A stretch of 28,991 nt of DNA from Vermamoeba vermiformis (GCA_045837725.1 JBEWZL010000309.1:62001-90991); one strand, 5' to 3'. Shown: positions 3,813 to 11,102, counted from the first letter of the stretch. A program made the numbers and translations. The notes: generated by a model not told the origin, from the sequence alone.

Positions 3813-5489
3813 ATGCCTTTGGTTGTTTTATCTTCTGCCTTATTGGTTCTTTTAATTGCTCAACCTGAGCTTTCTTTTTTTTCTGATTTATTTTTTTATG
3901 ATTTTACCTTAGAAGTTTTACATTCTATGTTTTTCTGATTTTTTAATAATTTTGGTTCTACTTATAGTTATTCCTTTAATTCAGATTTTGGGTTTCAAAA
4001 TCTAAGCTTTATGAAGTTAGATTATAATTATAATTATAGAACATATTTTAGCCAGACCTATTTGCACGCTGCTTATAATAAACACATGAAACCATATAGA
4101 AATCTGCTTAATGTAGATCGAATGTTTGGTGATTATAATGTTCGTACTTACGGAAAATCGAAAAAACATGCGTGAGCTATGAAGCATACGCGTATTTTTT
4201 TATTGCTCTATTCACATACTCTTGAATGCTATGCCTTTAGTCCTAAGCTTATGTCTTCCTCTTTTGTAATGTTTTATTTTAAGCGACATCATTTTTATTC
4301 TACTCTGGAGATGTTTTATGCTTCGATTTATTTAGGTATGATTTATTTTTTTTCGTTTACTTATACTCGTATGATAGAGGATGGTTCCTTAAATAGACGA
4401 GAAACTGAGGAGATTGATGAGGAGGAAGCTCAAAATCATTGATATTTTTTTCGTGAAGATAGACGTGGTGTTATTGAGCCGTCTATCGAAGATAATGAAG
4501 AGGTGAATTTCGCTTATCCGCAACATCCTGTTGAATGAGATGACAATGGGCATTTTTATCGTTGAGAAATTTATTTTTTTATGTTTCTGTTTTCTTTTTT
4601 AATTTGTTGGGGTGTCTCTCAGTCTGCTGCCTCCATGTTTTATTATGATCAATTTATAGACTTACACTTTATGGGCTGAGCTACGACTTTTGGTTTTATT
4701 TTTATATTTTGACGTATATTCTTTTTAGTTCAGTTTTTTACATATTTTAACAGATTTAATATTCGGCGTTTTTTATATTCAAAAATAGTTTTGCCTATTT
4801 TTAATGTCACTTTAGTTTTTATATTTAAGCTATTTCATGCGCACCTATGAGCTTTTTTTTATGCCACTTTAGCTCGTGTTGTAAAAATTTCAGATTTAGT
4901 ATCAACAGGTCAGTTTAACTTTGAGATGAATTTATATAAAGCTTCTTTAAAGGAGACTTCAAAGAATTTATTAGTGAAATTTTATCGTTATATATATTCC
5001 TCTTTTCAAAAAAATTTAAATTTTTTTGAAAAGAGGAATATATATGATTTTTTGTTATCTTCTAATTTAACTTTTACTTATAACAGTAAGAAAACTGTTG
5101 ATAAAATTTTTTACTATATTTATCAAAAGGACAGGGTTTTTTCTAACATATTTTCCATTACATCTTCCTATATTGATAATTATCGCCACCATAATGGCTT
5201 TTTTTTCCCTAAAAATATGTACTTAACTACAAATAAGTTGTCTTTTTTTTCTGCTTCTATTTTACCACCACCTTTTCCATTGTATCTAGATTATTTTAAT
5301 GTAAACGATTTGCCGATATGGGGTGCTGATTTTTTTTTTAGTTTAAACCAAAATGTTTTTGGAGTTGCTGAAGCGAGTGAAAACTGGTTTTTTTCGCGAC
5401 AATATAACACTCATTTTAATGTTTTGAATTCAAAGAGTCCTACAAAGAGGGTTAATAATAATAATAGTAATAATAATTTTTTATGTTAG
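3813..5489 (+). CDS. orf558, unidentified putative membrane protein
   Basis: Continuous frame in code 4 from ATG 3813 to TAG 5487-5489, read codon by codon between the supplied fragments 4179 and 4926. Hydrophobic segments flank an acidic loop (RRETEEIDEEEAQNHW...IEDNEEV). Confidence 0.85.
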
Positions 5490-8224: not shown

Positions 8225-11102
8225 AAAAATTAAAGGTTTAATTTTAAAGTTTATTTGATTTTTGTTGCCTAAATTCCTTAGTGACGAATCTTCCCGGTTT
8301 GTAAGAGTTTGGTCTTTTTTAAGCGCTTGCTATAACGATGTGAGGTTTATTCTTGCTCCAATTAATTTTTTTTTAAAAAATTTTTTCTCTGATCTGCGCT
8401 TAAGTTTAATAAAATATTTCACCGTGTTTCGTGATCTTGTAGTTAAACATCGGTTAATGTATATTGTTCGCCTTGCTTTTCTTATTTTTATACTGTATAG
8501 ACCTACTTTAATAGAGCTTGATTCGCTTTATTGGACTTTGTCCACTCTTTTCTATTTTGTTACGAATAACCTATTTTTTTTGACCTCTAGTCTTATACCT
8601 TTTACTAATTGGTCGCTTCACGCTATGCCAATAAAGGCTTTGATTTTAATAAGTTTTTTGCCAGCTCTTTATACTTCTAAACGGTTGAAAAAACGTCTCA
8701 TGCGAAAAAATAAAATTATTCTTCAGGATGATGAAGTCTATTTTTTGTTTCAATGAGCCCAGAGAATTTTTCTTTATTTTTCATATTTTTTAATTTGGTA
8801 TGTATCTTTCTTTATTTTTTCGATTTTTATCCCTTTTCTTTATTTATATCTGGCTGATTTTACTTTTGTTACTATTAAGTCTTTTTATTTGGCTTACGTT
8901 GTTAATTTTGTTAAGGATTACAAGTATTTAGCTTTTATTTTTGATTTTTTTTTTGGTAATAATTTTGTTTATTATGGGTCATTTGTTTTTGTTTTTTTCT
9001 TTAAGTATATTTTTATACTTTTTCACCTTAATGTTTTTTCACTTTTTTTAATTATACTTTCGTCGTTAAAATATTATTTTATAAAATTTTTTATTTTTTT
9101 ATTTTTTATTTTTATTTCTGTGATTGGCGTTTATTGTTCGTCCTTACTAGATATTTTAAAGAATTTACTAATTTTTGGGGTTTTATTTAAAAATATCTTT
9201 TTTGTGGGGGGTTCCCTTATTAAAATTAATGCTTTGATTGATGTATTTAAGAACTTTTTATTTTCAGATAATTTTATAATTTTTTTATTTTTTATTTTTA
9301 AAATAATTTTTGTTTTTATATTTTCTTTTTTACTGGGTATTCTTAAAGTATTTTTTTCTTTCTTGTCTTACTTGTTTCTTTTAATTTTACCTGATTATTT
9401 AGTTAATTATATTAACATAAATTTTTCTATCTTTTCTGATTTCTTTCTTATAAAATTGTACTCTTTTTTCATAACTATTTTAGATTGGTTAATACCGTTA
9501 TTGAATAGCTATTTTAAAGATTTAACTATTTTTGGCCTTATTTCTACTTGATACGAGTATTTAAATCATGGTGTTCAGCGTGGTATTTTGCGTAACAGCT
9601 ACTTGAATTGAGCTTTTGTTCATCTTTATGCTTCCATAATTGCTTTTTGGTTTTTGGATTTTGATTTTAGGGTTTCAGTTAAAACCCCGCCCAAGACTCC
9701 GCACATGTTATTAAAAGAAGCAAAACGTACGCAGGATTGAATACCGCAAAGCATGGACTTTTTGACTCTTCAGACAAATGAAGCTAAAATATATTTTGCT
9801 ATGCTTGATATTTCATTTGAGCATGTTGAGTCTTTACAGTTTATTTATGGTGACTTTGAGTATATTGATGAGGAGTATGATACAGAAGATGAGACTCCTG
9901 ATGAAGAAGAACTTTTTAACGAGTCTGAGGAGACCCTTAAAGTTAGAGAAATAATTGAGTCTGATCTTGGTTTTACGAAGAGGCCGACTAAGATGCGTGA
10001 CGCTGATCCTCTAGATTCTAATACGAGTTTGGAACGTCATTATTTAAGCGAAATAGTCGGTGAACCTGAACTTTTGTACATAGAGGATTCGCTGAAATGA
10101 ATGTTTGAGGCTCTTTATACGCCTACTTTTGAGGAATTACATTACAGAGATTCATTATTTAGTGATTGAATTTTTGATCCTGATGAAGATTTAACGTTTT
10201 TTGAGTTTTTAGTGTTGTTTCCTTTTTTGTTTTATTGTGTTTATGTTTGATTTTTTCATCGTCGAAGAGGAAAGCATTATAGGGCTTACCTTCGTTTTTT
10301 TATACCTTCCCGCAGATTTGTTTTTTCAGGTTGATGGGTTGAGGATTTCTTGGGGTTACCTATTGGGGAATGGGGGCGCTATTTCTTTGATAAAATGCGC
10401 CATCATACTGCTCCGGATGTAAAATTTAGACGCGTTCATAAGTTTAGGATGTATAGAGCAAGACAAAAATTTAAGTTAATGCAATTGGAGACTTTCCATT
10501 TTGAGCGAATAAGGCTTCTACTTTATAAGAATACTCTTAAGAATTGAGAGGATTTTACACAAAAAAGTATGAAATTTTTAGCTCCTAATAGAAAGAAGCA
10601 CTATTTGTATTCTACCGTTATGCAGTTTAAGCGTGAAACTCGTGATTGAACCGCGTTCGGTGACTGGTCTAAGTATTTTTGAAAACCGGACCCAAGACCG
10701 GAAAGGGTAACACTTTTTTTAGAATCATTGCAAGTTAGTTTACCTAGACTTGTTGAAAAATACGTGAATAAACGAAGTAGGAAAAAATTTCGAAGAAGCT
10801 TGTGGCGTACGGTGCAACATATACCTGGACATTTGTCTATGCCTTATTATCCTAAAAAGTGGTATAGTAGATTTTCAAATACATATTTATTTTTTCCTAG
10901 TGTAGACACAAAATATAATTATAGCTATTACAATTATATCGGTTGGAGAAGTAACCGATCCAGATGAAGACGTTACGCTTTCACGCCTGGTAACGTAACC
11001 GATAAAGTTTTCGAGTATAATCGTAGCCTTCAGCAAAGGGACTATAACCTTTACAAACGGTGACAAAGAAGACGTAGACTTATGAGAGTTTTTCAATTTT
11101 AA
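8217..11102 (+). CDS. orf961, unidentified protein: multi-TM N-terminal half, acidic middle, R/K/W/Y-rich basic C-terminus
   Basis: Fragments 8262, 8889, 9753, 10350 and 10728 share one frame and are joined via TGA. ATG 8217 overlaps the orf913 stop; TAA 11100-11102 lies one base before the cox1 ATG. Confidence 0.87.

Follow-up and report, generated by a model that had tools for sequence, protein, structure and literature searches.

The closest described counterparts of the genes treated here are three open reading frames (ORFs) of the reference mitochondrial DNA (mtDNA) of the amoebozoan Vermamoeba vermiformis—orf552, orf901 and orf957 (accessions YP_003540843.1, YP_003540844.1 and YP_003540845.1, respectively)—which are labelled in their entries as 'uncharacterized' or 'hypothetical'. 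The window analysed in this work, i.e. the whole stretch of 28,991 nucleotides (nt) of V. vermiformis (GCA_045837725.1 JBEWZL010000309.1:62001-90991), is a mitochondrial genome segment read with genetic code table 4 (TGA = Trp), all identified genes of which are located on the plus strand. At positions 3813-11102, directly upstream of cox1, it contains a block of three long frames designated here orfA, orfB and orfC, which, judging from sequence similarity, are the orthologues of orf552, orf901 and orf957; their existence is thus already on record, the new element being the copies of another lineage. As for their nature, the best overall explanation, which we regard as somewhat probable, is that the orthologues of this trio are lineage-restricted inner-membrane proteins of the V. 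vermiformis complex.

Several other organellar systems resemble the three frames in one respect or another. The Ymf proteins of ciliates are likewise large, fast-evolving and lineage-restricted products of a mitochondrial genome in which TGA encodes Trp, but no sequence relation to them was seen among 1.84 billion representative proteins, and the host of the present ORFs is an amoebozoan with well-conserved standard genes. The plastid protein Ycf1 (Tic214) is, like orfC, a giant encoded by an organelle genome, in which a polytopic membrane part at the N-terminus is combined with a long extramembrane part of high charge; it belongs, however, to another organelle, the Pfam model Ycf1 gave no match, and the charged parts of orfC are strongly conserved rather than repetitive or variable, the resemblance being one of architecture only. 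Mitoribosome receptors bound to the membrane—for example Mba1, Mdm38 and the C-terminal tail of Oxa1—present a basic, matrix-side domain on an inner-membrane anchor, as is proposed below for residues 678-961 of orfC, but they are nuclear-encoded and much shorter, and no match in sequence or fold connects them with orfC. Finally, the products of expanded mitochondrial genes of the ribosomal protein S3/Var1 type are basic, AT-biased, rapidly evolving and of unusual length, as the ORFs are; on the other hand, no match to the Ribosomal_S3 model was obtained in the window proteins (expectation value (E) ≤0.1), in 37 family members (E≤5) or with NCBIfam, and the ORFs exhibit membrane-type segments that are absent from the soluble ribosomal proteins of this genome.

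Three conserved genes upstream of cox1

The three frames of the block, which are open only if TGA is read as Trp (table 4), are the following:

3813-5489, + strand: orfA, 558 amino acids (aa), 8 in-frame TGA codons
5483-8224, + strand: orfB, 913 aa, 10 in-frame TGA codons
8217-11102, + strand: orfC, 961 aa, 14 in-frame TGA codons

Their re-derivation reproduced the uninterrupted frames, with the lengths and positions, that had been given in the original prediction, an earlier reading of the same DNA. It also reproduced the junctions described there, orfA and orfB overlapping in the string ATGTTAG (5483-5489), orfB and orfC in ATGTTTAA (8217-8224), and orfC being joined to cox1 through TAA-T-ATG (11100-11106). 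The claim that such frames exceed the length expected by chance could be confirmed as well: the longest run free of TAA and TAG in the block comprises 967 codons, whereas the maximum across 2000 randomisations was 300 (mean 120 and maximum 244 in 1000 mononucleotide shuffles; mean 121 and maximum 300 in 1000 simulations with a first-order Markov model). Each of the five remaining frames of the block contains 117-187 TAA and TAG codons. At third codon positions, all three ORFs (T 0.51-0.56, C 0.08-0.09) agree in composition with cox1, nad5 and cox3.

The word-indexed search for homologues of orfC yielded 18 proteins, one of them being identical to the query and the 17 others, mostly of 949-968 aa, exhibiting 48-72% identity; 16 of the 18 were taken into the alignment, P0003 and P0008 being omitted as apparent near-duplicates judged by score. 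Seven homologues were found for orfA (64-72% identity) and four for orfB (54-61% identity over residues 400-913). The scan of metagenomes revealed eight related loci, three of which (L001, L003 and L007) keep the full order cox3/tRNAs-orfA-orfB-orfC-cox1 with ORF lengths of 557-558, 896-913 and 958-960 aa, while two more (L005 and L008) cover partial spans of the same order; no related locus was found in genome contigs or in viral contigs.

The checks of synteny and selection that had been suggested for the block thus both gave a positive result, since the gene order is kept in the related loci and non-synonymous change (pN) remains far below synonymous change (pS). In the comparison of the window genes with 3-4 metagenome relatives, where synonymous sites are near saturation (pS 0.62-0.72), the values of pN versus pS were 0.16-0.23 versus 0.66-0.72 for orfA (three relatives), 0.25-0.32 versus 0.62-0.69 for orfB and 0.19-0.28 versus 0.66-0.71 for orfC; the control genes gave pN of 0.02-0.04 (cox1) and 0.14-0.21 (cox2). 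Moreover, 21 of the 32 in-frame TGA codons align with Trp, encoded by either TGA or TGG, in all compared relatives, and this interchange at Trp columns confirms both the reading of TGA as Trp and the constraint at the protein level.

Among the observations that would speak against it, the original prediction had itself named a lack of transcription together with a lack of conservation in close relatives. The ORFs are clearly conserved, as documented by their homologues and by pN being much lower than pS. Concerning transcription, contigs of five RNA runs from three studies carry 0.69, 0.66, 0.46, 0.37 and 0.31 of the block's sampled 31-letter words, i.e. 31-69%, which is a favourable sign but one of presence in RNA libraries only; run X20, with a word share of 0.15, was excluded from this count.

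The idea that the three frames are co-translated was not upheld. Their junctions vary among the relatives, with an overlap of 7-8 nt in some and a 1-nt gap in others, and elsewhere in the window, for instance in rps16/rpl19/nad11 and nad11/nad1, genes lie just as close together; such density characterises the genome as a whole rather than the ORF block. Since four lines of evidence—homologues, synteny, selection and code—agree with each other, it can be stated with very high confidence that orfA, orfB and orfC are real functional genes.

With regard to existing annotation, the 90% cluster of the orfA match P0022 contains the entry 'Uncharacterized protein orf552 / hypothetical protein HaveOM_p32', the window orfA being 66% identical to the cluster representative. 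The corresponding clusters of the orfB match P0026 and the orfC match P0007 contain orf901 / HaveOM_p33 (56% identity of the window orfB to the representative over residues 400-913) and orf957 / HaveOM_p34 (65% identity of the window orfC), respectively. A counterpart named 'hypothetical protein AB846_53' is carried by a second V. vermiformis mtDNA. In the reference mtDNA, the accession of Cox1 follows directly on those of the three ORFs, and its locus tag is given as HaveOM_p35 in an excerpt of PMC10100766; since the tags p32-p35 and the accessions run consecutively, the block would precede cox1 in the reference as well. The window copies and the reference ORFs are thus homologous over their full length, of near-equal size and, by these tags and accessions, located at the same place before cox1, but they are only 65-72% identical despite the 98% identity of Cox1. 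The designation of the frames as orphans therefore stands in the sense that no link to a characterised family exists, but not in the sense that they had escaped annotation; the literature search by ORF names and locus tags found no paper discussing them.

The Cox1 protein of the window shares a 90% cluster with two proteins (P0061 and P0063) named 'cytochrome c oxidase subunit 1 [Vermamoeba vermiformis]', its identity to them being 98.0% and 98.5%. An origin from a ciliate, a stramenopile or an ancyromonad, considered at first, was dropped; for ancyromonads, PMC10749196 describes the standard code and an absence of giant ORFs. The published Vermamoeba primers for cytochrome c oxidase subunit I (PMC10100766) have 3 and 2 mismatches to the window cox1, while the Tetramitia forward primer has no match within 3 mismatches, a weak guide to taxonomy beside the comparison of the Cox1 proteins; cryptic diversity within Vermamoeba has been described in the excerpt of the same source. 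Owing to these primer mismatches (3 and 2) and to the ORFs being only 65-72% identical to those of the named lineages, the window is read, at the level of sequence, as a distinct lineage within the species complex of V. vermiformis. Near-identical DNA was found in hot spring, biofilm and bioreactor metagenome runs (word shares 0.92-0.97) in 14 runs from 10 studies, or 8 studies without two possible sources. The occurrences in these three habitats fit the ecology of the amoeba. In addition, several small runs labelled as other organisms hold 95-97% of the block's words, our guess being amoeba DNA in co-cultures or contamination.

Domain architecture and pattern of constraint

Membrane segments were called by a rule calibrated on this genome, i.e. 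a 19-residue hydropathy window with a mean of at least 1.6 and no more than one charged residue. Among the control proteins, the rule finds no segment in five soluble ones (rps4, rps16, rpl19, nad11 and orf146), two in cox2 and 3-15 in cox1, cox3, nad1, nad2, nad4, nad4L and nad5. For orfA, orfB and orfC it finds 4, 6 and 8 segments, respectively, and the family-averaged profiles hold the segments in position (4, 8 and 9). Because these segments are called by a rule with such controls, they reflect more than composition, the products appear to be membrane proteins with very large extramembrane parts, and it is quite probable that all three are integral membrane proteins. The several hydrophobic stretches which the original prediction had noticed in all three frames are thus recovered, and so are two further features it had described—the acidic loop in both orfA and orfC and the long basic C-terminal domain of orfC—the net charges of which are given with the features below.

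Within orfA, the following parts can be distinguished:

3990..4370, + strand: orfA residues 60-186, basic domain, net charge +11; 81% identity, pN/pS 0.15
4371..4574, + strand: orfA residues 187-254, acidic loop of the RETEEIDEEE type, net charge -14; 81% identity, pN/pS 0.12
4575..4832, + strand: orfA residues 255-340, three membrane-like segments, seen in both family-averaged and single-sequence hydropathy windows

In 11 of 11 sequences, no change is seen at six histidines of the basic domain (H85, H91, H119, H125, H135 and H160) or at C139. The acidic loop contains invariant blocks in the family alignments. The family-averaged hydropathy windows cover residues 255-273, 294-312 and 320-338; R301 (codon 4713-4715), positioned in the middle of the second of them, is invariant too. 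The His/Cys cluster lies within about 80 residues, upstream of the segment containing R301. Based on these invariant residues, the arginine and the His/Cys cluster could serve in the handling of ions or of a metal or haem.

The second frame, orfB, has a net charge of +65 and is composed of these parts:

6383..6607, + strand: orfB residues 301-375, three membrane-like segments close together, from hydropathy
6608..8092, + strand: orfB residues 376-870, extensive domain outside the membrane, rich in invariant blocks; 56% identity, pN/pS 0.39
8093..8221, + strand: orfB residues 871-913, C-terminal membrane anchor, hydropathy 2.9-3.0

No segment within residues 376-870 meets the membrane rule, and the C-terminal anchor is the only confident part of the AlphaFold model, its predicted local distance difference test (pLDDT) score being 73-87.

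The longest frame, orfC, is divided as follows:

8607..9506, + strand: orfC residues 131-430, hydrophobic region with about seven membrane-like segments, poorly conserved; 40% identity, pN/pS 0.61
9600..9656, + strand: orfC residues 462-480, conserved hydrophobic segment with the invariant H469, from the family-averaged window
9657..10190, + strand: orfC residues 481-658, the most constrained part of the block, an acidic loop with a net charge of -30; 85% identity, pN/pS 0.12
10191..10247, + strand: orfC residues 659-677, conserved membrane segment, from hydropathy; pN/pS 0.13
10248..11099, + strand: orfC residues 678-961, R/K/W/Y-rich basic tail of 284 residues, net charge +45; 78% identity, pN/pS 0.21

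The acidic loop, which displays long invariant runs in the 16-row alignment, is flanked on both sides by the conserved hydrophobic segments 462-480 and 659-677. It should be pointed out that the former fails the single-sequence membrane rule (hydropathy 1.39) and passes the family-averaged rule only. The AlphaFold model is of low confidence over the basic tail.

Over the block as a whole, constraint is unusually distributed: conservation is lowest in the hydrophobic regions at the N-termini (30-49% identity, pN/pS 0.5-0.8) and highest in charged parts, namely both acidic loops (orfA, orfC), the His-rich basic domain in orfA and the basic tail in orfC (pN/pS 0.12-0.21).

Possible function and alternative explanations

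What the three proteins do can be proposed only tentatively and by analogy: they may be lineage-specific structural subunits or assembly partners of the inner-membrane respiratory or translation machinery, that is, of the respiratory chain and ATP synthase or of the membrane-bound mitoribosome. The suggestion is made because of the precedent of the ciliate Ymf proteins, several of which were later recognised as additional or diverged components of the respiratory complexes, of ATP synthase or of the mitoribosome. Mitochondrial ribosomes would synthesise the products, which would enter the inner membrane from its matrix side. The intermembrane space would then be the location of the acidic loops of both orfA and orfC, and the matrix that of the orfC tail, the His-rich domain of orfA and the greater part of orfB. 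This topology is proposed on account of the positive-inside rule and of the export of acidic domains, known for mitochondrially made proteins such as Cox2, the tails of which are exported. The orfC tail may contact RNA or the ribosome, and since conserved soluble domains sit on loosely conserved anchors, the proteins would act by contacting other proteins or RNA at the surface of the membrane rather than as a channel.

Several observations weigh against this proposal, among them the outcome of the searches, which offer no tie to any complex. No match was obtained for the window proteins in Pfam at E≤0.1 or in NCBIfam at E≤1, in agreement with the original prediction, which had recognised no standard mitochondrial gene in the three ORFs. 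The Pfam scan at E≤5 of 16 orfC, 10 orfB and 11 orfA members returned only what is regarded as noise, consisting of isolated single-member matches (best E 0.00047) and one family seen in two members (E 0.19). The profiles of the three families found no match at E≤10 among all PDB chains, and no usable match was found in the ESM Atlas with two relatives as the query. The orfC profile retrieved 24 matches from the 1.84 billion representative proteins, of which one is a full-length member of the family and 23 are fragments of 45-334 aa, with no relative outside the orfC family; the fragments, which match no Pfam family at E≤0.01, probably belong to the same family and were cut at TGA by standard-code gene calling. 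The AlphaFold2 models of orfC (16-row alignment; mean pLDDT 43.2, predicted template modelling (pTM) score 0.20) and of orfB residues 381-913 (10 rows; mean pLDDT 42.0, pTM 0.21) are unusable, and since models of such low confidence give meaningless matches, no fold comparison was made. Apart from the searches, the topology is deduced from charge, and the net charge of orfB fits a ribosomal or RNA-binding protein equally well. The N-terminal hydrophobic regions are weakly constrained, and some of the 'membrane segments' located there could be the result of T-rich drift. The RNA support consists of assembled contigs of RNA libraries, with DNA carry-over being possible. Finally, the standard genes missing from the genome cannot be listed, because half of the mitochondrial genome lies outside the window and the loci.

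The last point, concerning about half of a genome of ~51 kb, also favours an explanation according to which the three ORFs are extremely diverged and expanded standard genes, e.g. rps3, subunits of ATP synthase or succinate dehydrogenase, tatC or ccm, with a similarity beyond the reach of HMMER. Precedents exist in ciliates and kinetoplastids, where unnamed mitochondrial frames later turned out to be standard subunits; moreover, orfB and orfC resemble ribosomal proteins in their strongly basic character, and orfA has its invariant arginine in a membrane segment in addition to the invariant histidines. Nevertheless, the absence of family matches even at E≤5 and of PDB matches at E≤10 stands against it, as does the comparison by hhalign with 12 standard families of the same genome (cox1-3, nad1, 2, 4, 4L, 5, 6, 11, rps4 and orf146), the probability of which did not exceed 0.6% in 36 of 36 cases. 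The genes rps4, rps16 and rpl19 of the same genome are still recognisable, and the lengths of 558-961 aa are far larger than those of most candidates, making the explanation rather improbable. Of the known genes with which the original prediction would not be compatible—rps3, tatC, ccmF and secY—none gave a confident match in the Pfam, NCBIfam and PDB profile searches. The original prediction itself saw in the three proteins a complex of their own, encoded by mtDNA and located in the inner membrane, either translocase-like in the manner of Ycf1/Tic214 or tethering nucleic acids. The polytopic N-terminal region of orfC followed by large charged domains and the basic tail would suit such a role, the three genes are adjacent in every locus spanning them, and all three share the same narrow taxonomic range. 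Adjacency, however, means little in a tightly packed, single-strand gene layout; there is no evidence of mutual binding, and the three families are mutually unrelated, i.e. not paralogues. In addition, no similarity to any translocase family was seen, the models of TatC, SecY, YidC-Oxa1 and CcmC-CcmF (including the Trp-rich motif of Ccm) giving no Pfam, NCBIfam or PDB profile match (PDB E≤10), and the hydrophobic core needed for a channel is the least conserved part, so that a complex of this kind is considered unlikely, although worth keeping in mind. About as improbable as the diverged standard genes is the related possibility that the three proteins jointly form a lineage-specific, mtDNA-encoded inner-membrane machine unrelated to the respiratory chain; this could be a Ycf1-like translocon or a platform anchoring mitoribosomes or the nucleoid through the basic tail of orfC, with the acidic loops acting in the intermembrane space.

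Large unidentified ORFs in the mtDNA of protists and fungi are often derived from plasmids, and the ORFs of the block, having no homologue outside the lineage, might accordingly be remnants of a selfish or foreign element, such as an integrated mitochondrial plasmid or mobile ORFs, without a host function. In this case, however, domains of DNA or RNA polymerase, LAGLIDADG or GIY-YIG endonuclease or reverse transcriptase could be looked for, and no match to any of them was obtained in any family member. The codon-position composition equals that of the host genes, all relatives have the ORFs at the same place and with the same length despite saturated synonymous sites, and specific domains are under strong purifying selection; owing to this fixed synteny, host-like composition and domain-specific selection, a selfish origin is very improbable. 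As to non-coding chance ORFs favoured by T-rich composition, the high content of F, I, L and Y does follow from the T-rich strand, but the stop-free run of 967 codons beyond all randomisations, the conservation, pN far below pS and the interchange of TGA and TGG at Trp columns leave them practically no room, and they were ruled out. The reading of the trio as lineage-restricted inner-membrane proteins is thus the one that is preferred here.

The surrounding genome and the meaning of the block

The block is embedded among the following genes of the window:

1-2330, + strand: rnl, its 5' end truncated by the window
2408-3208, + strand: cox3
3228-3651, + strand: trnA, trnS, trnF and trnP, between cox3 and the ORF block
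11104-12735, + strand: cox1, given as ORF and translation, named through its cluster-mates and serving as the anchor for synteny and taxonomy
3' of cox1, in order: rps4, nad5, trnM, cox2 (490 aa), nad4, nad2, rps16, rpl19, nad11 and nad1
after nad1: orf146, nad4L, five tRNAs and then a tandem array of 143-bp units to the window end

The COX2_TM model matched the product of cox2 (15621-17093; 490 aa) as two separate stretches, and its two membrane segments lie near residues 27 and 315; the two-part match and the spacing of the segments point to an insertion of ~270 residues between them. The length is kept in three relatives (489-492 aa; 70-78% identity). The adjoining rps16 and rpl19 (20063-20627), 1 nt apart, were matched weakly, i.e. 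TIGR00002 with 45.0 bits versus the cut-off of 45.3 and rplS with E 3.7e-6; the pair is described as a rare retention and a peculiarity of V. vermiformis mtDNA in an excerpt of PMC4256733, which agrees with the host indicated by Cox1. The frame orf146 (23616-24056), overlapping the end of nad1 and the start of nad4L, encodes an acidic protein of 146 aa (net charge -9) with no convincing family match. Concerning nad2, the ORF as listed begins within nad4 (18535); its true start is probably the ATG at 18577, since three relatives begin nad2 just past nad4.

The tandem array (24847-28991) consists of 29 copies of the 143-bp unit with 100% identity and reaches the window end. Each unit opens with the final ~24 nt of trnR(ucg), the gene of which (24797-24871) extends into the first unit. 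By coordinates, the contigs of two relatives of ~51 kb stop ~300 nt beyond the point equivalent to the array, and for this reason, the array probably breaks short-read assemblies. For a long-read mtDNA of V. vermiformis, a preprint states 61.7 kb in its abstract or 67.1 kb in its text (10.1101/2021.04.23.440484).

The block of ~7.3 kb means that about one-seventh of a 51-kb genome is spent on three giants unrelated to anything known by the methods used here, the charged domains of which have been held nearly constant while synonymous sites became saturated. Their host is a cultivable amoeba that is frequent in water systems and in hot springs and is used in the laboratory as a host of giant viruses and intracellular bacteria. 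To our knowledge, mitochondrial genomes almost never keep genes whose products act outside respiration, ATP synthesis and translation, a few systems of export or maturation excepted; Vermamoeba would therefore either have enlarged those machines by large new subunits, as ciliates have done, or keep something of a new kind.

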